From a virus: 41,802 nucleotides of DNA. The number at the start of each line of letters is the position of its first letter. Position 1 is the first letter of the stretch. Under the pieces are notes generated by a model. That model worked only from the letters and a program-made list of their open reading frames with translations. It did no database searches and was not told where the DNA came from. The DNA lies in IMG/VR virus record IMGVR_UViG_3300026549_000013, positions 1 through 41,802 of that record; one strand, 5' to 3'. Positions 3,380-41,802 of the stretch are shown here, piece by piece. Position numbers and translations under genes: made by a program.

Positions 3380-3954
3380 AGAAAAAAGCACTTGCGACCG
3401 ACATAAATGTCGGTAACAAAGCAGCAGGCCACGGATCGAACGTGCCAATGCAGCCGAATATCCCGCCGATGCCATCCAACACATCTAACGCGTTAGACGC
3501 ATTGGTTGACGCTTACAAAGGGCGTTCTAACGCGTTAGAAAATCAAACGAAATGGAATCGTATGATGTTACACCTTGCAGAACTGCAATTGACATATTCG
3601 CCGGACTGGGGAGCAAACGGCCAGGGCGATCAAAAACTATATGATTTCGTTACAGAACTGATCGATGAATTTAGCGGATGGGATGTTCCCGACACAAATG
3701 TCGGGGACACGATCAGCAGACAGGCGGTTTTAGACATAGCATTTAAGTATTGTACTGATGACGACGGAACGTGTTCAAAACCCGATACCGATTTAAGAGA
3801 AATGCTTGATGATATTGAAAATCTGCCACAAGCACAATTCGTGTATACGTGTAATGGCTGTGAACATTATGGTAAGTGGGAAGACGAAATAGAAAATGGG
3901 TATAATTGCCCATGTATTAGATGCGCAAGAAGAGGAATCGATAATTATGAGTGA
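3376..3954 (+). CDS. Hypothetical protein (192 aa) carrying one DTISRQAVLD motif
   Basis: ATG 3376 overlaps the upstream stop (ATGA). The track ORF from 3280 is a 5' extension over the previous gene. Confidence 0.55.
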   Translation: MKKKALATDINVGNKAAGHGSNVPMQPNIPPMPSNTSNALDALVDAYKGRSNALENQTKWNRMMLHLAELQLTYSPDWGANGQGDQKLYDFVTELIDEFSGWDVPDTNVGDTISRQAVLDIAFKYCTDDDGTCSKPDTDLREMLDDIENLPQAQFVYTCNGCEHYGKWEDEIENGYNCPCIRCARRGIDNYE

Positions 3955-4861
3955 TTTAATAAGCAGACAGGCGGCGATTGATGCGCTGACTGAATACGGA
4001 AACGGACGAGCAGTATTTATCAGTGTGGGAGAAGCGGTTATACGAATTGAGCAGTTACCGCCCGCCAACTGTTCGGAGTTTCCGAACAGCTCAGACACGA
4101 TCAGCAGGGCAAAGGCGATTGAGGCGCTTAAAAATGACATGGCATCACTTGACCACATTATAAAGGGCATGAGTGCCAATGATGTAAGATTGGACGCTTA
4201 TGTGTCACAGAGAAATCAAGTCAATTATGACATATACACAATCAATAACCTTCCACCCGCACAGCCAGAACAACTTAGCACGAACTTGGCAGAGGTTGGC
4301 ACGGACTGCATCAGCAGACAGGCGGCCATTAAAGCACTCGATAAAAGGTTTGACTCAATACCAATGGAGCAGACAACGGCGATTTTGTTATTACGAAGAG
4401 ATTTAAGAGAATTGCCGCCAACCAACACTTCGGAGTTTCCGAACAGTTCCGACACGATTAGCCGGAAGGAAGCGATTGAAGCAGCGGATGCGATCATAGC
4501 AAGAGATAAAAGCGGCAACAATGATGTGGTCAATGCGATGATCGCATGGAGAGAATATATAAAGTATTTGCAACCGGCGCGGCCTGCACAGACGGAACGC
4601 AAATGGATTCTGTGCAATGAAAGGATGCCAGAAGAACATGAATGGATTGGCACAAAGGATCTCGGGACCACAATATCAGATGAGGTGTATGTCACTTTTG
4701 AGAATCCGAAAGGCGAGAGGTTCTGCAAAGAGCTGAACTTTCAAAATGGCAAGCTGAGTGCATTCGACAAATCAACGATCGATGCTTTTTACAAGGGCAG
4801 TAAGCAGATTGCATGGATGCCCAAAGAACTGCCCGAACCTTACAAGGGGGTGACAAAATGA
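3947..4861 (+). CDS. Repeat-containing protein (304 aa) with four ISR-x-AI-x-AL motifs and a DUF551-like C-terminus
   Basis: ATG 3947 (MSDLISRQAAIDAL). Two roughly 119-aa internal repeats. The C-terminal WILCNERMPEEHEW...VYVTFENP resembles DUF551 from memory. Confidence 0.6.
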   Translation: MSDLISRQAAIDALTEYGNGRAVFISVGEAVIRIEQLPPANCSEFPNSSDTISRAKAIEALKNDMASLDHIIKGMSANDVRLDAYVSQRNQVNYDIYTINNLPPAQPEQLSTNLAEVGTDCISRQAAIKALDKRFDSIPMEQTTAILLLRRDLRELPPTNTSEFPNSSDTISRKEAIEAADAIIARDKSGNNDVVNAMIAWREYIKYLQPARPAQTERKWILCNERMPEEHEWIGTKDLGTTISDEVYVTFENPKGERFCKELNFQNGKLSAFDKSTIDAFYKGSKQIAWMPKELPEPYKGVTK

Positions 4862-6656: not shown

Positions 6657-7115
6657 GTGACGATCATGGCAGGCAACGGACGACCGCAAAAATACCATGA
6701 CTGTGTTGAGCCTTATCTGGCTGAGATCAAAAAGATGGCTCTTACCATGACCGAAGAACAGATCGCGAAGACGCTGGGCGTCTCTTACTCATCATTCCGG
6801 AAGTACAAAGGCCAGCACGAAGAGCTTCAGGAAGCGCTGAAGAAAGGAAGGCGCCAGCTTGTCATGGAGCTGTACAGCGCCCTGATCAAGCGCGCGAAGG
6901 GATTCAAGTACACAGAGAAGAAGAAGATCTATGAGGGCGGGGAGCTGGTCCGTGAAGAGATCTCTGAGAAATACGCACAGCCGGATGTCGCCGCGCTTAA
7001 TCTGGCGCTGAAGAACTTCGACGCAGACAACTGGGCCAATGATCCGCAGATCATGGAACTGCGGCGTAAAGAATTGGAGCTGCGGCAGCAGGCCGTGAAG
7101 AATAATGACTGGTAA
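6657..7115 (+). CDS. Terminase small-subunit-like HTH protein
   Basis: N-terminal HTH (MTEEQIAKTLGVSYSSFRKY), the central oligomerisation-like segment and AALNLALKNFDADNW resemble TerS of Firmicutes phages. The start is GTG 6657 or ATG 6666. Confidence 0.45.
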   Translation: MTIMAGNGRPQKYHDCVEPYLAEIKKMALTMTEEQIAKTLGVSYSSFRKYKGQHEELQEALKKGRRQLVMELYSALIKRAKGFKYTEKKKIYEGGELVREEISEKYAQPDVAALNLALKNFDADNWANDPQIMELRRKELELRQQAVKNNDW

Positions 7116-7809
7116 GAGATATACGCTTGACACATTCTATACATCGCAAGAGTGGCGCACAATCAGGGAGATCATCATACACGACAGGACAAAGGATGAC
7201 GGAAATGTCTACGACGAAGTAACAGGGCGTCCGATCATCCAGGGATATGACATCGTCCTGCACCACAAGATCTTTCTCACGGAAGAAAACGTGGGGGATG
7301 CATCGGTCAGTCTTAATCCGGACAACATCATGATCGTGTCACACAAGACACACAACCAGATCCACGAGAAGTTCGGATACATAAAGCGCGAGATCTATCT
7401 TGTGTACGGATCACCGCTGTCAGGTAAGACGACATGGGTCAACAGTGTTCATCAGGCAGGTGATCTTGTAGTTGACATGGATTCGATCTGGCAGTGCGTA
7501 AGCGGTCTGAATAGATTTCAAAAGCCTATGGCCCTTAACGCCGTGGTTTTTGGAGTAAGAGACTATCTGATCGATTCAGTCCGGATGCGGCGCGGCAAGT
7601 GGAACAACGCTTATGTGATCGGTGGCTATCCGCTGATCAGCGAAAGGGAACGGCTGATCAGACAGCTGGGAGCGCGGGAAGTCTTCATCTCGACATCAAA
7701 AGAAGAATGCCTGCGGCGCCTGGAGCTGGACGACAGCAGGGATAAAGCGGAATGGTCGCGCTATATCGACGAATGGTGGCGCAGATACTCCCCCCGGATG
7801 GCCCTTTAA
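7105..7809 (+). CDS. HNH endonuclease fused to a P-loop kinase/NTPase-like domain
   Basis: The N-terminal half has HH...N...H (VLHHKIFL...NPDNIMIVSHKTHNQIH). The C-terminal half has Walker A GSPLSGKT followed by VVDMD. Confidence 0.7.
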   Translation: MTGKRYTLDTFYTSQEWRTIREIIIHDRTKDDGNVYDEVTGRPIIQGYDIVLHHKIFLTEENVGDASVSLNPDNIMIVSHKTHNQIHEKFGYIKREIYLVYGSPLSGKTTWVNSVHQAGDLVVDMDSIWQCVSGLNRFQKPMALNAVVFGVRDYLIDSVRMRRGKWNNAYVIGGYPLISERERLIRQLGAREVFISTSKEECLRRLELDDSRDKAEWSRYIDEWWRRYSPRMAL

Positions 7810-15076: not shown

Positions 15077-15517
15077 GTGGCGAAAAGGAAGAACAGCCTG
15101 TCGATCGATTTCAGCAATTTCGCGGAATACGCGGAACGCCTGGACGAACTGAACGCGGACCTGAAAGAGATCTTCCAGGACGCAATGGAACAGGCTGCAG
15201 AGACAGTCGAATGGGACATCATGGATGCGCTTGCAGATGCGAATCTGCCTGCGCTGGGTAAATATTCACAGGGAGCGACAGAAGCATCGGTGATCAGGGA
15301 CGCCAAAGTCCAATGGCAGGGGTCTGTTGGAGAAATCCCGATCGGATTCGACAAGACGAAGCCGGGCGCCGGCGGATGGCTGATCACCGGGACGCCTAAG
15401 ATGCGTCCAGACTATAAGCTGGAAGACATTTTCAGAAGACGGAAGTACGAAAAGAAGATCATAAAGCAGATCGAAGAACATCTGCAGGAAGAGATCGATG
15501 AAAGGTTAGGTGGATGA
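15077..15517 (+). CDS. HK97 gp10-like tail-completion protein
   Basis: GTG start after AAGGGGGG; position and size. Confidence 0.5.
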   Translation: MAKRKNSLSIDFSNFAEYAERLDELNADLKEIFQDAMEQAAETVEWDIMDALADANLPALGKYSQGATEASVIRDAKVQWQGSVGEIPIGFDKTKPGAGGWLITGTPKMRPDYKLEDIFRRRKYEKKIIKQIEEHLQEEIDERLGG

Positions 15518-15852
15518 TGGAAGATAATTTGATCGAGTTATTGGAGTCATTAGGATATCCAGCGAGAAGACAGGGAAGCATGCCGGAAAGTTATCCGGAT
15601 GCTTTTTTTACTTTCTGGAACACGGATTCACCGGACCATGCACATTATGACAACAAGTCATACGGAACGGCATGGGCCTTCAATGTTTTCTTCTATGCGA
15701 CGGATCCGGCGCTGGTATACCAGATGATCAGCGCCGCCCGTGATCTGCTGAAGGATCACGGATGGGTCGTCCCATCCAAAGGATTCGACGTGGCAAGCGA
15801 CGAACCGACACACACAGGCAGAGCGATTACCGCTCAATATTTGGAAGTATAA
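15514..15852 (+). CDS. Tail terminator-like protein
   Basis: Last gene before the major tail protein; call is positional. Confidence 0.45.
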   Translation: MMEDNLIELLESLGYPARRQGSMPESYPDAFFTFWNTDSPDHAHYDNKSYGTAWAFNVFFYATDPALVYQMISAARDLLKDHGWVVPSKGFDVASDEPTHTGRAITAQYLEV

Positions 15853-15865
15853 GGAGATTCAAAAA

Positions 15866-16468
15866 ATGCCTAAGACATATTTTGAGTATCGCGGCGTATC
15901 AAACGCCGTATATGCAGAGATCACATCAGACACAGCGGAAGAATTTGTGACAGGCGTAGTCAAAGATCTGACTGGTGTGTCTGAGATCGGCAAGACCACA
16001 GACAGCGCCAATGAGACACATTATTATGACAACCTTCCTGCGATCGTTATCGATTCCGTGGGATCTGATGAGATCACGATAAACGCATCCGGCATCCCGC
16101 TTGATGTCCTTGCAGACATCACAGGACAGTATTACGACGAACAGACCGGAATGATGGTAGAGCAGGAATCCACACCAAAGTATTTTGCCTTCGGCTACAT
16201 CACAGACAAGACCGACGGAACGAAGGTCCTTGTTTGGAGGTTGAAAGGAAAATTCTCGATACCAGGCACGACATCCGCGACAAAGGACGCCGGAACAGAT
16301 GCGAATGGTCAGGAACTGACATACACAGGCATCTCTACAGTCCACAAGTTCACGAAGACAGGAAAGCCGGCACGCGCGATCAATATCGACACATCAGTCA
16401 ACAAGACGATGACCGACGCGACATTCTTCGAAAAGGTCAACACGCCCGACACGATCAAAGCATCCTGA
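15866..16468 (+). CDS. Major tail protein (phi13-family-like)
   Basis: 200 aa between the connector genes and the G/GT chaperone, followed by a strong terminator. Confidence 0.8.
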   Translation: MPKTYFEYRGVSNAVYAEITSDTAEEFVTGVVKDLTGVSEIGKTTDSANETHYYDNLPAIVIDSVGSDEITINASGIPLDVLADITGQYYDEQTGMMVEQESTPKYFAFGYITDKTDGTKVLVWRLKGKFSIPGTTSATKDAGTDANGQELTYTGISTVHKFTKTGKPARAINIDTSVNKTMTDATFFEKVNTPDTIKAS

Positions 16469-24752: not shown

Positions 24753-25415
24753 ATGCCTAAGACATATTTTGAGTATCGCGGCGTTTCTAACGCCGTATAT
24801 GCAGAGATCACATCTGATACAGCGGAAGAATTTGTGACAGGCGCAGTCAAAGATCTGACTGGTGTGTCTGAGATCGGAAAGACGACGGAAAGCGCACACG
24901 AAGTGCATTTTTACGACAACATAGCGGCGATCGTGGTCGACTCAGTGGGGGCTGATGAAATAACGATCAATACATCCGGCATCCCGCTTGACGTCCTTGC
25001 GGACATCACAGGTCAGTTCTACGACGAAGAAAATGGCATGCTTGTAGAGCAGGAACCCACACCGAAGTATTTTGCCTTCGGGTACATCACAGACAAGACA
25101 GACGGAACGAAGGTCCTTGTTTGGAGACTGAAAGGCAAATTCTCGATCCCAGGCACAACGTCCGCGACGAAGGACGACGGAACAGATGCAAATGGTCAGG
25201 AACTGACATATACTGGCATCTCGACGATCTACAAATTCATGAGGACCGGAAAGCAGTCGAGCGCGATCAACGTCGATACATCTGTCAACAAGATAACGAC
25301 GGCGGAAAGCTTCTTCGCGGAAGTAAATACGCCGGACACAATCCTGCCGATCATCCTGGCAACGGATGACGACGCGATAATTGTAACTAGTGAAGATTTT
25401 GAAATCCTTGTATAA
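24753..25415 (+). CDS. Second major-tail-protein paralogue (220 aa) with a distinct C-terminal extension
   Basis: Roughly 85 percent aa and nt identity, by hand alignment, to 15866-16468 over about 197 residues. It then diverges into LPIILATDDDAIIVTSEDFEILV. Confidence 0.8.
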   Translation: MPKTYFEYRGVSNAVYAEITSDTAEEFVTGAVKDLTGVSEIGKTTESAHEVHFYDNIAAIVVDSVGADEITINTSGIPLDVLADITGQFYDEENGMLVEQEPTPKYFAFGYITDKTDGTKVLVWRLKGKFSIPGTTSATKDDGTDANGQELTYTGISTIYKFMRTGKQSSAINVDTSVNKITTAESFFAEVNTPDTILPIILATDDDAIIVTSEDFEILV

Positions 25416-25432: not shown

Positions 25433-27244
25433 ATGGACAACACAGAGAGAAGAAGAATCGTTAATCTGCCGCAGGCCACAGAAGTGGGCGACGACATGAA
25501 TTTCGTGACGGACAGCACGAACGGATCCGGAACAAGAAAGCTCCCTTATGCAATGCTTAGAAGCGCGATCTGCCAGGCATCCGCGCTGAACATGGCGCCT
25601 GCATACAGCAATGCAGCGACATACAGCGTGGGCGATCTTGTGGCATATAGCGGACAGCTGTATATGTGCAACACTGCGATCGAGCAGGCTGAAAACTGGA
25701 CGCCGGCACATTGGACGGCGGTCGACATGAGCGAGGTGATCGACAGCGTCGAACAGCGAGTGGCAGAGATCGAAAACGCGGAAGGTCTGCACAGATACGG
25801 AGTTTCCGGCATCGGACAGGCAGCATCACAGCTGACAAGGATCTGGGACGCAGTTGGAATGACGGCCCAGGTGGGAACGGATGGAAACAACGCGAACGTA
25901 GTCAATAACTTTGACGACGTCGCGCCTTTTAATAGAAGAAAATGCGTCGGTCACTGGACAGTGAGAGACGGCCGCGCGCACTTCGTGGTTGAAGCATATT
26001 ACGGAGATGAAAATTACGCAGAAGACGGCACAATGGGCGACTATGTCGCAGTCGAATGCCCGCGTGCATTTTACTACATGAAGGACGGAATTCTGGGCGT
26101 ATCTGCACATCATTATGCAGGCTGGAAGCCTTTCGACATCTTCTGCCATAACCACAACGCGGAAGAGACTATGGAATATGTTTACCTGCCCGCATATGCG
26201 CTGGCGACGAAGAACGGGCATGCTGTGTCACTTCCTGATCTGGACAATGAACAGGGAGACTATGCAGGACTGTTCACAACGGCAAGAACTTATGACAACG
26301 CAGATGTGGCGGGCCTTGCGATGATCCAGCCGGCAGCAGTCGAATTCTACGAATGGGCGCTGCAGACAGTCGAATTCGCACAGCAGGTTCCGACAGCAGT
26401 GATGAAGGGATGCCTGTCGCTCAGATCTGACAATGCGGACACAGTAGTATTCCAGGACACGACACATGTACTGACAAACAACTACTATGCAAGCCGCGTA
26501 GTCGGTGAGTATATCTGCATTTATGACGGGACAGCTGATCACACGAAGGCGTCTTATAAGGCGACACACAAGATCCTGTCGATCGTGAGATGCGATGAAA
26601 ACGGAAACGCTGACGCTTCAGGAACACATCAGCTGATCGAAGTCCAGGACCTGGGCAAAGGCTACTTCGAATATGATACATCCACGACATACAACCTGGC
26701 GGCGCGTCCGTACAGAACAGGTGCGTGCAACGGCGTTTCGACGCCTTCCGGATCACCTGTGTCAAACACATCAGGATATTATCCGATGAAGTACAGATGG
26801 CGTGAAAACACACATGGCAACCAGTATCAGACATACGTGGACCTGTTTAACAAGCGCGTCGGGACCGGCGACGATGATTACAAACTTGAATGGTATTACC
26901 TGCCTGATCCGTCAAAGATCACGACGCCTGGAAACAACATTTCGCTTCCCGGCGAAAATTATGAAAAACTGGACATCGAAACAAGCCACGAAGACTATCT
27001 GAACGGATGGATCAAGAGCAAGCAGTATTCTGCTGATTATCCGGACATCTGGATTCCTGTACAGGTGACGGACGGCAGCGCGTCAACATATGCTGCAGTT
27101 TACGCCTACCTCGTTAATTCGAACGCGGTCCGTGCCGTCCGCTTCGGCGGGCATTGGTACAACGGCAACGTGTACCTGAATGCGAATAACGCGCCTTCGT
27201 TTGCGTACGCGAATTATGGTGGCGCCCTTTGCTTCGCCCAGTGA
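25433..27244 (+). CDS. Tail fibre / receptor-binding protein, DGR target (603 aa)
   Basis: Last tail gene. Contains a CBM5/12-like YSVGDLVAYSGQLYMCNTAI...NWTPAHWTAV segment. The C-terminus RFGGHWYNGNVYLNANNAPSFAYANYGGALCFAQ is typical of C-type-lectin-fold DGR variable regions. Confidence 0.85.
   Translation: MDNTERRRIVNLPQATEVGDDMNFVTDSTNGSGTRKLPYAMLRSAICQASALNMAPAYSNAATYSVGDLVAYSGQLYMCNTAIEQAENWTPAHWTAVDMSEVIDSVEQRVAEIENAEGLHRYGVSGIGQAASQLTRIWDAVGMTAQVGTDGNNANVVNNFDDVAPFNRRKCVGHWTVRDGRAHFVVEAYYGDENYAEDGTMGDYVAVECPRAFYYMKDGILGVSAHHYAGWKPFDIFCHNHNAEETMEYVYLPAYALATKNGHAVSLPDLDNEQGDYAGLFTTARTYDNADVAGLAMIQPAAVEFYEWALQTVEFAQQVPTAVMKGCLSLRSDNADTVVFQDTTHVLTNNYYASRVVGEYICIYDGTADHTKASYKATHKILSIVRCDENGNADASGTHQLIEVQDLGKGYFEYDTSTTYNLAARPYRTGACNGVSTPSGSPVSNTSGYYPMKYRWRENTHGNQYQTYVDLFNKRVGTGDDDYKLEWYYLPDPSKITTPGNNISLPGENYEKLDIETSHEDYLNGWIKSKQYSADYPDIWIPVQVTDGSASTYAAVYAYLVNSNAVRAVRFGGHWYNGNVYLNANNAPSFAYANYGGALCFAQ
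27095..27231 (+). repeat. DGR variable repeat (VR)
   Basis: Ungapped match to 27324-27460 with 7 mismatches, each at a TR adenine. Confidence 0.9.
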
Positions 27245-27255
27245 TCAGGGGTGAA

Positions 27256-27286
27256 TTGCCCGAAGGGCAAGAGGGGCTTTCCCCTC
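27256..27286 (+). other. Two adjacent GC-rich hairpins just downstream of VR (candidate DGR target-recognition hairpin and/or terminator)
   Basis: ttgccc-gaa-gggcaa (27256-27270) and gagggg-cttt-cccctc (27271-27286). Confidence 0.6.
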
Positions 27287-27323
27287 ATTATATGTAACTG
27301 TAATTAAAAGGGATTCTCAGCGC

Positions 27324-27460
27324 GCAGTTTACGCCAACCTCGTTAATTCGAACGCGGTCCGTGCCGTCCGCTTCGGCGGGAATTGGAACAACGGCAACGT
27401 GAACCTGAATGCGAATAACGCGCCTTCGAATGCGAACGCGAATTATGGTGGCGCCCTTTG
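27324..27460 (+). repeat. DGR template repeat (TR)
   Basis: Non-coding copy of VR, rich in AAC/AAT (14 in the VR frame). The last 14 nt, ggtggcgccctttg, contain no A. Confidence 0.9.
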
Positions 27461-27628
27461 GATATCCATCCAGTCGGCGCGTGTCCTGACCGGCACGCGC
27501 CCTATTTATTAATCACTATAACCGTCAAACAGACGGGCGCAGAGTTTTCCTTGGATCTACGGATCTGAAATATATCGACTGGGACGGCTTAGTAGGGAAA
27601 CCGAAAAGACGTAGGATACAAGCAAAGT
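27324..27628 (+). ncRNA. Putative DGR RNA (TR plus 168-nt spacer up to the RT start)
   Basis: By analogy with the Bordetella phage BPP-1 TR-Sp RNA. Contains an 8-bp hairpin, ggcgcgtg / cacgcgcc, at 27476-27501. Confidence 0.5.
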
Positions 27629-28813
27629 ATGAAACGTATCAGAGATACATGGAAAGTGGCTACAGATGAAGACAACGCGTTCGCGGCGATCGTGGACGGG
27701 ACAAAGTACAAACGCGGGAAAAGAGAGGTACAGAAGCTTCTTTACGACAAAGAAAAAGTGAAAGCGCATCCGGAACTGTATCACAAGATCGATCCGGACA
27801 AAGGTAAGATATATGCCAAAAAGCTATGCTGGATCTTGAAGAAAAAGAAGTGGAGACACAAATCACCACGGCACAGAAGGCAGTTCTGCAGGAATCGCGC
27901 TTCCAGCAAAGGAAAGTGGAGAGATCTTTACATCCCGTGCTTGGACGATCACATAGTGGCACACATGCTGATGCAGGCAAATATGAAAGCGTTCACAAAA
28001 GGGATGCATCCGTATTGCTGCGGATCTGTGCCGGAAAGAGGAATCGAATTTCTTAGAAAGACGATAACTCACTGGATCAGGAATGATCGACAGCTGCGCT
28101 ACTTCGTGAAGCTGGATATAAGGAAGTTTTTCGACAATATAGACAGAAACAAGCTGAAAGCGGTACTAAGGACGAAGATCAAGGACAAAGCTTCGCTGTG
28201 GGCGTTCGACCAGATCATAGACGCAGCGCCTTCGGCCTGTCCAGTGGGATTCTACACATCGCCATGGTTTGCAAATCTGTATCTGGAAAAGCTTGACTGG
28301 TACATCGAGCAAAATCTTTTCAAGATCAGACGCGGGAAGCGGATCAAATATGTAACACATCATCTCAGATACGTTGATGACATCCTGCTGTTCGGAACGA
28401 GCAAGACCGATCTGAAGAAAGCAGTCAAACAGATAAAGGAATATCTCAAAATTAATTACGGATTAGAGATAAAGCCATGCTGGGAGATCAAGCGGATCGG
28501 AAAGCACGACAAGGACAGCGGGAAGTTGATAAAAGGAACATATTGGCTGGACATTGGCGGATACAAATTCTGCCAGGACGCGACGATCCTTAGAGACGGC
28601 ATATATCTGTCAGCCAAAAGACTGGCAAGAAAGATGTATAAAGCAGGATATTACACAGTGCATCAGGCGCAGTCGATAATATCAAGGATCGGATGGGCGA
28701 AGCATAGCGACGCGCGAAGGTTCATGCAGGAATGCATCCTGCCATATGTCAATATCAAAGAAGCAAGGAGAGTAATCAGCTATGTGGGCAAGATCCAAAA
28801 ACAGCGAAGCTAA
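27629..28813 (+). CDS. DGR reverse transcriptase (394 aa)
   Basis: RT motifs read in the translation: RDLYIPCLDDHIVAH, YFVKLDIRKFFDNI, GFYTSPWFANLYL, RYVDDILLFG, LDIGGYKF. Confidence 0.9.
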   Translation: MKRIRDTWKVATDEDNAFAAIVDGTKYKRGKREVQKLLYDKEKVKAHPELYHKIDPDKGKIYAKKLCWILKKKKWRHKSPRHRRQFCRNRASSKGKWRDLYIPCLDDHIVAHMLMQANMKAFTKGMHPYCCGSVPERGIEFLRKTITHWIRNDRQLRYFVKLDIRKFFDNIDRNKLKAVLRTKIKDKASLWAFDQIIDAAPSACPVGFYTSPWFANLYLEKLDWYIEQNLFKIRRGKRIKYVTHHLRYVDDILLFGTSKTDLKKAVKQIKEYLKINYGLEIKPCWEIKRIGKHDKDSGKLIKGTYWLDIGGYKFCQDATILRDGIYLSAKRLARKMYKAGYYTVHQAQSIISRIGWAKHSDARRFMQECILPYVNIKEARRVISYVGKIQKQRS

Positions 28814-29030
28814 AAAGCCGGAAAAGATGGAGAGATCCGGAAGCCAGGTCATCATCAGAAAAGACTTTCTGTTTGTGCAGGCGACAGAAGATGAAAACGC
28901 GCACTGGGAATACAGCGAATGGCAGATGTCAGAAGCAGAATATGAGATCTACGAGAATTTCGAAGATCGAATGAAGGAACAGGAAGATGCACTTGTTGAG
29001 CTGGCAGGAATGATTGCGGAAGGAGAATAA
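28782..29030 (+). CDS. Small acidic protein (82 aa)
   Basis: AGGAG 11 nt upstream of ATG 28782, which overlaps the RT 3' end by 32 nt. Alternative start at ATG 28827. Confidence 0.5.
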   Translation: MWARSKNSEAKKPEKMERSGSQVIIRKDFLFVQATEDENAHWEYSEWQMSEAEYEIYENFEDRMKEQEDALVELAGMIAEGE

Positions 29031-40623: not shown

Positions 40624-41684
40624 TAGACGACAATTTCATGAACGAAGTCATATATGCGATAGCACCGTATGTTGAGAACAGAGATCTGAGCGACATAAGG
40701 ATGCGACTTGCGATAACATTGAGCAAATACGATGTGAGAAAGCAGGAAACAGAACTAATCCCGTATGAGGGGGATGTGAACATAGAGATCCTGAAGCGCT
40801 TCCTGATGGCGAAGACGGCACGCGGCCTGTCGAAAAGAACGCTGGAACTTTACAAAAACTCGATATCGATGACGCTTGCCAAAATAGGAAAGCCATATTC
40901 ACAGGTGACAGCTGATGACGTCAGGTTGTATCTCGCGATAAGAGTAAATCGGGATGGAGTCAGTAAAACATGCGCAAACAATGAGCGCCGGAACCTGTCA
41001 GCATTTTACACATGGCTGCAGAAAGAAGAGATCTTGATAAAGAATCCAATGGCGAAGGTGGAGCCGATCAAGGAAACAAAGAAGAAAAAGAAGGCATACA
41101 CAAACATGGATCTGGAGAAGATCAGATACGCCTGTGAAGATGAGATGGACAGGGCGCTGGTTGAAGTCCTGATCTCAACATGGGCGAGAATTTCCGAAGT
41201 CGCAAGCATCAAGATAAGCGACATCGACGGAAACAAGATAATGGTCCACGGCAAAGGCGACAAATACAGAATGGTGTATTTGACAGCAAAAGCCCAGCTG
41301 GCGATCAATGCATATCTTGAGAAGAGAAATGATAATGCGCCGCTTCTTTTCCCCAAAGGCCGCCAAGCGAAAGAGCTGATAAAGAGCGGGATGGAGCGCA
41401 AAGATTTACATCTGTGGTGGATGTATCCGGAAAACATATCAGAAGGAGAAAGAGACGCGGGATCACTAGAGGCGCGGATCCGCAAGATCGGGAAGCGTGC
41501 AGGCGTCGAAAACGTACATCCGCACAGATTCAGAAGGACTGGCGCAACGATGGCACTCAGGGCCGGCATGCCGCTGATGGAAGTGTCGCAGATTCTGGGA
41601 CATGAAAGCGTGGGGACCACACAGATCTATCTCGATATAGACAATCAGCAGCTGGAAAGCACGCATGAGAAATATGTGATCTAA
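40620..41684 (+). CDS. int: Tyrosine recombinase / integrase (XerC/D-like)
   Basis: SAM-like N-terminal domain. WARISEV (Arg I), HPHRFRRTGAT (HxxR) and GHESVGTTQIYL (catalytic Tyr). Confidence 0.9.
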   Translation: MIDDNFMNEVIYAIAPYVENRDLSDIRMRLAITLSKYDVRKQETELIPYEGDVNIEILKRFLMAKTARGLSKRTLELYKNSISMTLAKIGKPYSQVTADDVRLYLAIRVNRDGVSKTCANNERRNLSAFYTWLQKEEILIKNPMAKVEPIKETKKKKKAYTNMDLEKIRYACEDEMDRALVEVLISTWARISEVASIKISDIDGNKIMVHGKGDKYRMVYLTAKAQLAINAYLEKRNDNAPLLFPKGRQAKELIKSGMERKDLHLWWMYPENISEGERDAGSLEARIRKIGKRAGVENVHPHRFRRTGATMALRAGMPLMEVSQILGHESVGTTQIYLDIDNQQLESTHEKYVI

Positions 41685-41802
41685 GGAGCGGGACATGAAG
41701 AACAAAATGATAGACCTCAATAATGTGCTGTTTGAGCAGTTGGAACGGCTCCAGGACGATGAAGCCATGAAGGACGACCAGAACTTCAAAAGAGAGATTG
41801 AA
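41676..41802. repeat. Terminal overlap, exact copy of 1-127
   Basis: Read directly. 41695-41802 repeats the 5' part of the CDS at 20-271. Confidence 0.95.

Follow-up and report, generated by a model that had tools for sequence, protein, structure and literature searches.

Downstream of its tail genes, the plus strand of the window (the whole stretch of 41,802 nucleotides analysed here, positions 1 to 41,802 of the IMG/VR virus record IMGVR_UViG_3300026549_000013) carries a gene for a 603-aa tail protein, two copies of a 137-nt repeat and a gene for a reverse transcriptase (RT) (Table 1). One copy, the variable repeat (VR), lies close to the 3′ end of the tail gene, whereas the other, the template repeat (TR), is non-coding and is located between the tail gene and the RT gene. 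We are highly confident that this region is a diversity-generating retroelement (DGR) without accessory genes, made up of a target gene with its VR, the TR and the RT, and that it resides in a temperate siphovirus of ~41.7 kb, probably with a Lachnospiraceae host.

Table 1. Coordinates of the features in and around the putative DGR
Feature	Position in window	Strand	Remarks
Target gene, 603-aa tail protein	25433-27244	+	phrog_5302 'tail protein'; follows tape measure, Dit and Tal
Variable repeat (VR)	27095-27231	+	codons 555-600 of the 603-codon coding sequence 25433-27244
VR 3′ end, resembling the initiation of mutagenic homing (IMH) element	27218-27244	+	adenine-free, G+C-rich 14-mer GGTGGCGCCCTTTG (27218-27231), common to the TR, then VR flank CTTCGCCCAGTGA
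Two adjacent G+C-rich hairpins	27256-27286	+	25-55 nt after the VR, past the stop codon
Helix P1, 5′ strand AGGGATTCTCAGCGC	27309-27323	+	directly upstream of the TR; pairs with 27537-27551
Template repeat (TR)	27324-27460	+	31 adenines, non-coding; 0 A-site changes in other samples
TR-RT spacer	27461-27628	+	contains HA, HB, P1 3′ strand, HC and the 3′ domain HF/HD/HE
IMH* analogue, TR flank GATATCCATCCAGTC	27461-27475	+	stands where the VR has CTTCGCCCAGTGA
Hairpin HA	27476-27501	+	spacer; recovered by RNAalifold
Hairpin HB	27522-27536	+	spacer; recovered by RNAalifold
Helix P1, 3′ strand	27537-27551	+	15-bp helix closing the TR into a loop
Hairpin HC	27553-27566	+	UACG loop, followed by GAAAUA; recovered by RNAalifold
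Nested 3′ domain HF/HD/HE	27573-27618	+	three tiers; outer helix holds the AGGA ribosome-binding site of the RT
Reverse transcriptase	27629-28813	+	394 aa, isoelectric point 10.0; RVT_1 1.2e-19; phrog_1423 4.9e-60
ORF82 (open reading frame, ORF)	28782-29030	+	82-aa acidic protein; begins (ATGTGG) inside the RT gene, sharing its final 32 nt

The repeat pair and its variation among related phages

VR and TR align over 137 columns without gaps and differ at seven of these (VR/TR: T27107/A27336, C27152/A27381, T27158/A27387, T27173/A27402, T27200/A27429, T27201/A27430 and T27206/A27435). The TR base is an A at all seven mismatches, where the VR carries a T in six cases and a C in one, and none of the 106 non-A positions of the TR differs from the VR. 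For all seven mismatches to coincide with the 31 A positions by chance, the hypergeometric probability is 1.7e-5. An earlier note on this DNA had given the coordinates of both repeats, the seven mismatches, the restriction to adenines and the resulting changes of Asn residues, and every one of these details was reproduced when we re-aligned 27095-27231 with 27324-27460. The homology between the repeats breaks off sharply at both ends, and the two are the sole copies of this sequence in the window. They are separated by 92 nt, and a further 168 nt separate the TR from the RT gene.

In the reading frame of the VR, the TR adenines are distributed over codon positions 1, 2 and 3 as 14, 16 and 1, and the TR contains 14 in-frame AAY codons. 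The differences seen in the VR convert Asn to Tyr, His, Tyr, Tyr, Phe and Tyr. Because the adenines lie almost all at the first two positions of the 14 AAY codons, their exchange could give rise to up to 15 residue types at each of 14 positions (plus two TAY codons) without creating a stop codon. Both the location of the VR at the 3′ end of the target gene and the concentration of TR adenines in AAY codons are as expected for a DGR.

The target protein belongs to a cluster that has 128 members at 90% identity, 15 of which were compared. In these 15 members all 14 AAY codons and the two TAY codons are hypervariable, and the residues at the AAY-derived positions are limited to those reachable by altering an A. 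The intervening scaffold residues are unchanged, save for Y557N in P0129, the RT-less variant taken up below with L015/L016, in which a non-A change (T to A) affects one of the two TAY codons. Four genomes with a TR of their own show 7, 25, 18 and 21 mismatches between VR and TR, all 71 of them at TR adenines. The TRs of these genomes retain all 31 adenines and differ at two non-A sites only; at both of these, each VR matches its own TR. Variation of the VR at the nucleotide level in the sister loci L014, L047 and L048 is likewise limited to A sites. In pairwise comparisons between sister genomes, 39-68% of the A sites differ, compared to 0-4% of the other VR sites, and the divergence in the rest of the target gene (1363 nt compared) amounts to 1.7-5.7%. 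The earlier note had proposed, as a check, to look for VR polymorphism confined to the sites opposite TR adenines. Our surrogate for this test, which compares samples through their assemblies and not reads within one sample, gave this very result (71/71), and the A-site polymorphism expected of ongoing diversification is found across samples. Judged from these assembled sequences, the cross-sample data show that the VR has been re-dealt repeatedly and recently in the phage population.

Furthermore, public metagenome data from gut and rumen yielded at least 298 homologues of the RT at E <= 1e-5, and about 25 loci from IMG/VR, GTDB, JGI, ENA and Logan were compared. The order of VR, ~90 nt, TR, ~170 nt and RT is kept in about 20 relatives that are more distant than the sister genomes. 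From start to start, the VR-like and TR-like copies are 219-266 nt apart in the clade that shares the SP dipeptide of the window RT in motif 4 (SP clade, see below) and 209-251 nt apart in distant relatives with the canonical SQ. The distance from the end of the TR to the start of the RT gene is 166-197 nt for most of the clade members that show a clear pair and 160-224 nt overall; in the SQ relatives it is 156-462 nt. The mismatches in the about 25 relatives lie overwhelmingly at TR adenines, and the direction of the asymmetry is constant, since the A always sits in the copy that adjoins the RT gene.

The closest cultured relatives are the Butyrivibrio phages Idris and Arawn (Arawnvirus). As in the window, their tail genes are followed by the target, ~130 nt, TR, ~156 nt, RT, small ORFs and lysis genes. 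Idris (MN882554, ~15350-15702 of the record; 3459-3569 and 3701-3811 of L019) harbours an unannotated TR/VR pair, in which 17 of 17 mismatches are at a TR A. Its host is also a member of the Lachnospiraceae, and its spacer matches the Rfam families RT-4 and RT-18. On the other hand, the identity between the two RTs is just 31.6%, motif 4 of Idris has the canonical SQ, and its substitution spectrum is rich in A-to-G. In the Idris genome paper the RT was read as possible prophage immunity, and a DGR was not mentioned (PMC7372960).

Contigs of the phage in the window often break in or beside the repeat pair: L008, L010 and L011 start in the TR, and L009, L012 and L013 in the VR, as expected for a repeated, polymorphic locus. 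The sister phages L015/L016 (ERZ28634037 scaffold_112; SRR12711595; L015 4163-4640) have retained a VR that is diversified, the hairpins after it and the P1 5′ strand, but of the TR just the initial 13 nt. The rest of the TR and the RT were not found within the fetched part of the contig, where the TR remnant is followed by unrelated ORFs of 103, 94 and 221 aa and then by a GDSL lipase-like protein. This represents either a natural loss of TR and RT, or their relocation, which would freeze the VR. In L017, a Lachnospiraceae metagenome-assembled genome (MAG; JAGBMJ010000115.1), the copy at the TR position is short of many adenines. The pair (4456-4596 and 4685-4825) shows 19 mismatches of mixed type and non-AAY codons where the relatives carry AAY; it seems that a mutagenised copy has overwritten this TR, or that the TR has decayed. 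L018, a prophage in a Lachnospiraceae MAG, has a second direct repeat of 127 nt (1207-1333 and 1447-1573), which is located in the tail gene upstream. We considered it as a second DGR target, and rejected it as an ordinary repeat, as its mismatches are mixed and clustered at the ends.

Components of the element

The ORF of the RT is intact, with VGFYTSP as motif 4 (aa 206-212) and YVDD as active site (aa 248-251). In a single-sequence search of solved structures, the best match was bRT of Bordetella (8ub7, 9.7e-12), followed by group II intron and retron-type RTs (9.3e-7 or weaker). An intact YVDD RT just downstream of the TR, with bRT as its best match among solved structures, is in favour of the DGR that the earlier note had proposed. 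When 50,697 phage records were searched with tblastn, all RT relatives were distant (identity <=32%) and included Bordetella BIP-1, Vibrio VHML, crAss-like and Butyrivibrio phages. BIP-1 and VHML have long been known as DGR carriers, and the relatives are mostly phages known for DGRs or found in this analysis to bear TR/VR pairs. The NCBIfam RT models remained below their cut-offs (group II 78.8 vs 300 bits; retron St85 51 vs 235; defence-associated RTs, DRT, far below), PADLOC reported just generic RT similarity, and Rfam detected no group II intron or retron RNA family. The window RT was accordingly placed with neither the group II intron, the retron nor the defence RTs. These comparisons support membership of the RT in the DGR clade, without formally proving it, as bRT led the group II intron RTs by a narrow margin only when a profile was used (see below).

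Motif 4 departs from the canonical (I/V/L)GxxxSQ in having SP in place of SQ, a dipeptide shared without exception by 121 of 121 members of the RT clade. Variants of motif 4 (SP, SH, NQ and others) were reported for 15 of 155 DGR RTs, with adenine exchanges retained (Schillinger et al. 2012, DiGReF, PMC3521204). SP is therefore a known variant, and SQ is typical rather than strictly defining. We also compared the substitution spectra of the two groups. For the SP clade (window, L001, L014, L020-L042, L047 and L048), 21 distinct VR/TR pairs gave a count of 175 A-to-T, 133 A-to-C and 30 A-to-G exchanges (9% G). The four SQ relatives (L019, L003, L004 and L006) showed A-to-G in 42 of 66 cases (64%), next to 13 C and 11 T (chi-square p about 2e-25 against the SP clade). 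Selection, common ancestry and the small size of the SQ sample all confound this contrast, and we regard a link to the motif as a hypothesis only. The Gln at position 187 of bRT, which corresponds to P212 here, contacts the incoming dNTP (bioRxiv 10.1101/2023.10.23.563531), and misincorporation opposite A in BPP-1 involves, by frequency, dA, then dC, then dG (PMC7826257).

Striking conservation among the relatives is seen in the spacer between TR and RT and in the 15 nt that precede the TR, and these sequences form a set of helices. In P1, 11-14 of the 15 pairs form in 17 sequences, and seven pairs show compensatory changes; the window has one A-A mismatch in P1, and its remaining RNA helices are intact. 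Over seven helices of the 17-sequence alignment, 88.2% of 718 cells are paired, compared to 34-46% in controls slid by 1-3 columns. Compensatory changes are present in 30 of 43 scaffold pairs, the covariation score is 0.54 vs 0.09-0.14 in the slid controls, and none of 500 shuffles reached the observed pairing values. As the structure was drawn from these 17 sequences themselves, it has an advantage over the slid controls; the many double changes are independent of this bias. MAFFT left HA and HF of the window out of register with the others (a loop deletion and a 1-nt shift), although the window's own hairpins are intact. The HF helix (27613-27618 with 27573-27576) covaries as TCC/GGA, TCT/AGA and ACT/AGT, and translation of the RT and folding of the RNA may be coupled via the AGGA within HF.

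The Rfam model RT-18 (RF03021) aligns over its whole length to 27554-27625, including the conserved UAGUAG and GAAA junctions, at 21.9 bits and an E value of 0.39, below the gathering threshold of 41.3 bits, so that the spacer does not count as RT-18 by the standard of Rfam. RT-18, RT-4 and RT-10 are, like the scaffold described here, structured RNAs directly upstream of RT genes. The Rfam models differ from it in covering the 3′ domain only, without a TR-bracketing helix, HA, HB or HC. RT-10 is the TR-RT spacer of BPP-1, and the other RT motifs were guessed to serve DGRs (Weinberg et al. 2017, PMC5737381). In the cryo-EM structure of the BPP-1 ribonucleoprotein (RNP), a stem-loop right after the TR, a 'cPRT Stop' and a long interrupted RT-binding stem were described; the 'cPRT Stop' combines a duplex, in which sequence upstream of the TR pairs with sequence downstream of it, with a short hairpin closed by a tetraloop and with adenosines that are unpaired (bioRxiv 10.1101/2023.10.23.563531). 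The window has a TR-bracketing duplex and spacer stem-loops as expected for a DGR, and their order matches that in BPP-1. As the survey in the same study took in only DGRs with Avd, the same RNA plan in a lineage without Avd is a modest extension of this description. Two candidates for a primer duplex, UCACUAU:AUGGUGG and the pre-RT GCAAAG:CUUUG, did not covary in the relatives, and we make no claim for them.

At the DNA level, the TR and VR flanks beyond GGTGGCGCCCTTTG are just loosely alike, and this combination of a shared core and a diverged flank is repeated in the relatives. By analogy with BPP-1 (PMC3240598), we infer an IMH-like role for the 3′ end of the VR. The hairpins that follow are TTGCCC-GAA-GGGCAA (27256-27270) and GAGGGG-CTTT-CCCCTC (27271-27286), and a weaker stem (27233-27255) spans the stop codon of the target gene. 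The two hairpins are candidates for a target-recognition hairpin or cruciform and/or for a terminator of the target gene. In 17 relatives the stems after the VR are retained with different sequences, such as CGGCG...CGCCG, GCAGGGGG-TCTT-CCCCCTGC and GGGGAC-GAA-GTCCCC. This conservation of structure, not sequence, matches the finding that target recognition in BPP-1 depends on the structure of the stem and not on its sequence (PMC3240598). Both the asymmetry between IMH and IMH* and a G+C-rich hairpin or cruciform after the VR, two properties looked for in a DGR, are thus found at this locus.

The cassette of target, TR and RT resembles 'Architecture A' of Wu et al. 2018 (PMC5758913), which likewise is without Avd, HRDC, MSL and CH1. 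This TR-RT core was present in 75 of 372 DGRs, and a profile search found no avd elsewhere in those genomes; altogether 29% of DGRs had no accessory genes, and the RTs of Lineage 3 were without avd (PMC5758913). Absence of Avd is therefore not new. The window differs from Architecture A in that its RNA scaffold is mapped and a conserved small ORF, ORF82, is translationally coupled to the RT. About 30 relatives carry an ORF82 homologue right behind the RT, and the conservation (35-56% identity) extends over the whole length of the protein. It had no match in Pfam, PHROG or PADLOC, and a word-indexed protein search returned five close matches only. In the archaeal virus vir335, an ORF82 homologue follows a phrog_5302 tail protein with no RT between. 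ORF82 may be an accessory factor or the usual downstream partner of the tail protein, and its place in the element is uncertain. The proposal that it is a new DGR accessory gene, weakened by the RT-less homologue of vir335, was set aside.

The target itself is a candidate receptor-binding protein. It has a weak CBM_5_12 match at its N-terminus (aa 57-92), a conserved body of ~500 aa and the VR at its C-terminus; its homologues share aa ~100-603 and differ in their N-termini. For the C-terminus, searches of Pfam, NCBIfam and the sequences in the PDB gave nothing informative, with no Pfam FGE-sulfatase or DUF1566 match and no sequence match to solved variable proteins. AlphaFold modelled the body confidently (pTM, predicted TM-score, 0.69 for the full length and 0.82 for aa 160-603), whereas the VR segment reached a predicted local distance difference test (pLDDT) score of only 23-50 in both models. 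The sole significant fold match in the PDB was TaqVP (5vf4; E 3.4e-5 for the full length, 1.9e-4 for aa 160-603, probability 1.00), the DGR variable protein of Thermus aquaticus, which has a C-type lectin fold. The resemblance is distant, with a TM-score of 0.30-0.34, a root-mean-square deviation of about 12 Å and 12% identity. Matches in BFVD were uncharacterised siphovirus proteins and crAss-like tail fibre proteins (TM-score up to 0.62). Tentaclins (PMC10743442) were considered as the family of the target and rejected, as their topology differs. The C-type-lectin-like tip suggested in the earlier note is partly supported, by the match to TaqVP, but at a low TM-score and with a low pLDDT of the VR; a lectin fold is plausible, but not established.

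Proposed mechanism and alternative explanations

We propose that an RNA of about 27309-27628 would be made, the transcription of which is presumed and the structure of which is shown by covariation. In this RNA, the 15-bp helix of pre-TR sequence and spacer would close the TR into a loop, with the spacer hairpins adjoining the start of the RT. The RT would then copy the TR into cDNA and, as the adenine-only pattern suggests, misincorporate only opposite A. The cDNA would replace the VR, and by analogy with BPP-1 the A-free 3′ core and the G+C-rich hairpins after the VR may guide this step. The tip of the receptor-binding tail protein would thereby acquire a new surface for binding, by which the host range is presumably altered. 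Adenine-directed mutagenic retrohoming by a DGR, as the earlier note had read the locus, is in agreement with the A-only mismatches, the adjacent intact RT and the A-site variation across samples.

The prototype BPP-1 DGR (mtd-avd-TR-brt) is alike in many respects. Its VR also lies at the 3′ end of the gene for a tail receptor-binding protein and its TR, of ~135 nt, adjoins the RT; the A-only differences are focused in AAY codons, the repeats end in an A-free, G+C-rich core of 14 nt, and a G+C-rich hairpin follows the VR. The RNA elements come in the same order as well: a post-TR stem-loop, a TR-bracketing duplex, a tetraloop hairpin with adenosines and a long interrupted stem at the RT. In contrast to BPP-1, the window has no avd, a gap of 92 nt between VR and TR and a Gram-positive host. 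Its RT has 394 aa compared to 328 aa in bRT, with ~25% identity in the core and SP instead of SQ (bRT Q187 = P212). Moreover, the stem-loop at the 'Avd-binding' position has a loop of 6-12 nt and not a tetraloop, and the loops after the VR are not GRNA.

Several observations stand against this explanation. In a PDB search with a profile of the RT clade, bRT again came first, but marginally so, with 69.9 bits vs 67.6-69.0 bits for group II intron RTs. Neither a priming nucleotide nor a TR:spacer primer duplex was located when the sequence was searched by eye. Among the matches listed for the ORFs flanking the cassette and for 37 small ORFs genome-wide, covering 25 of 28 matched families, there was none to Avd_like, HRDC or another known accessory protein. 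Since the BPP-1 mechanism needs Avd, it is not transferable unchanged. The post-VR loops, GAA and CTTT, deviate from the GRNA consensus reported for other phage DGRs (PMC3240598). Activity of the DGR is inferred from differences between assemblies, and the VR of the window differs from its TR at just 7 of 31 adenines, compared to 18-25 in the sister genomes. This low divergence could be due to recent homing with few changes, to selection, or to an assembly in which TR and VR reads were mixed.

It would also fit a fossil element, in which diversification belongs to the past, the DGR of this genome is inactive and the VR has become fixed. Decay is indeed known in the family, as L015/L016 keep a diversified VR without the RT and with no more than 13 nt of the TR, and L017 is without many adenines in the copy that stands at the TR position. 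However, the RT ORF with its YVDD is intact in the window, all 31 TR adenines are kept with A sites identical to those of the sister TRs, and the RNA helices are intact save for the single mismatch in P1. In addition, sisters with 94-98% identity over the remainder of the gene bear unrelated VRs, which indicates very recent activity in the lineage, and we consider a fossil quite improbable. We find it unlikely, too, that the VR of the window is partly an artefact, with TR-derived reads or reads of a mixed population threaded through it, so that seven mismatches understate or misrepresent the divergence. Besides the low count, the many contigs that break in or beside the pair and a repeat length of 137 nt near typical final k-mer sizes would be in line with such an error. 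Against it, the mismatches are spread across the VR (columns 13-112) and not clustered at one end, and a protein collection lists the identical 603-aa sequence from JGI/IMG as well as from ENA; even so, the nature of the element would be unchanged.

The explanation that dispenses with a DGR altogether is a tandem duplication of the 3′ end of the gene that drifts next to an unrelated RT, be it of a retron, a group II intron or a defence system. The sub-threshold NCBIfam and PADLOC matches to group II intron, retron and DRT models might be taken in its favour, as might the immunity role considered by the Idris genome authors. Yet the mismatches are at adenines only, in the window (P 1.7e-5) as well as across four genomes (71/71), the A is always in the RT-side copy, and the TR lies at a fixed 166-197 nt from the RT in most of the clade members that show a clear pair. 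With the group II score far under its cut-off (78.8 vs 300 bits) and no group II or retron RNA detected by Rfam, we regard this explanation as effectively refuted.

A DGR thus remains our preferred reading, and its RT clade might differ from the prototype in mechanism. The Avd-less RTs with SP could represent a variant of mutagenic retrohoming in which the role of Avd is replaced by the longer N- and C-termini of the RT together with the RNA scaffold, or by the RT-coupled 82-aa protein, and in which the change from Gln to Pro shifts misincorporation opposite A away from dC, giving a spectrum rich in A-to-T and A-to-C and poor in A-to-G. We put this forward tentatively, as a proposal that is rather doubtful at present.

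The phage, its host and the meaning of the element

The window ends in an exact terminal direct repeat of 127 nt (1-127 = 41676-41802) and therefore represents a circularly assembled, complete genome of ~41.7 kb (about 41,675 bp). It encodes the small and large terminase, portal and major head protein, and a tail gene set in which the tape measure (1586 aa), Dit and a minor tail protein resembling Tal precede the 603-aa target. An r1t-type holin and an amidase/glucosaminidase endolysin are present for lysis, next to a replication initiator and an integrase. This gene content, including the tail genes and the integrase, identifies a temperate siphovirus, and the phage is a complete temperate siphovirus of gut or rumen origin. 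A megablast search of INPHARED and an exact 24-mer scan of IMG/VR found no near-identical phage, so that relatives were reached through proteins instead; the same contig and sister genomes were found in ENA and Logan assemblies. A GTDB scan for prophage relatives of the RT returned only two loci, located in two Lachnospiraceae MAGs from deer gut, and the Butyrivibrio phages as nearest cultured relatives infect a host of the same family. Lachnospiraceae are probably the hosts of this phage as well. The Gram-positive siphovirus named in the earlier note is in keeping with the tail, lysis and integrase genes and with these prophages.

Two further features of the genome were observed. Directly upstream of the DGR target, a second major-tail-like gene (24753-25415; 220 aa, TIGR01603/phrog_88) is found, which over its first 300 nt shares 85% identity with the canonical major tail gene (15866-16468). 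It is missing from the sister genome L048. A protein with an HNH endonuclease domain is encoded near the genome end (HNH/small terminase coordinates 249-854 and 7105-7809, both on the plus strand), and the small terminase ORF also matches HNH families. The combination of HNH and small terminase is typical of HNH-dependent cos packaging modules.

DGRs on tail proteins of gut phages, cassettes without Avd and RTs with the SP motif have all been described previously. The new details are the covarying RNA scaffold with its 15-bp TR-bracketing helix, the conserved GC hairpins after the VR, the small ORF coupled to the RT and the A-to-G-poor spectrum of the SP clade. Apart from DGRs, no natural system is known by which a defined protein surface can be rewritten on demand, and DGRs on phage tail proteins set the host range in gut communities. 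The value of the present system lies in a complete genome, many sisters with re-dealt VRs, natural variants that lost TR and RT, and the cultured relatives Idris and Arawn. A lineage that is without Avd, and keeps the RNA architecture by which the Bordetella RNP positions its template, bears on how DGRs function independently of Avd, and is of relevance for minimal DGRs for directed evolution in Gram-positive hosts.

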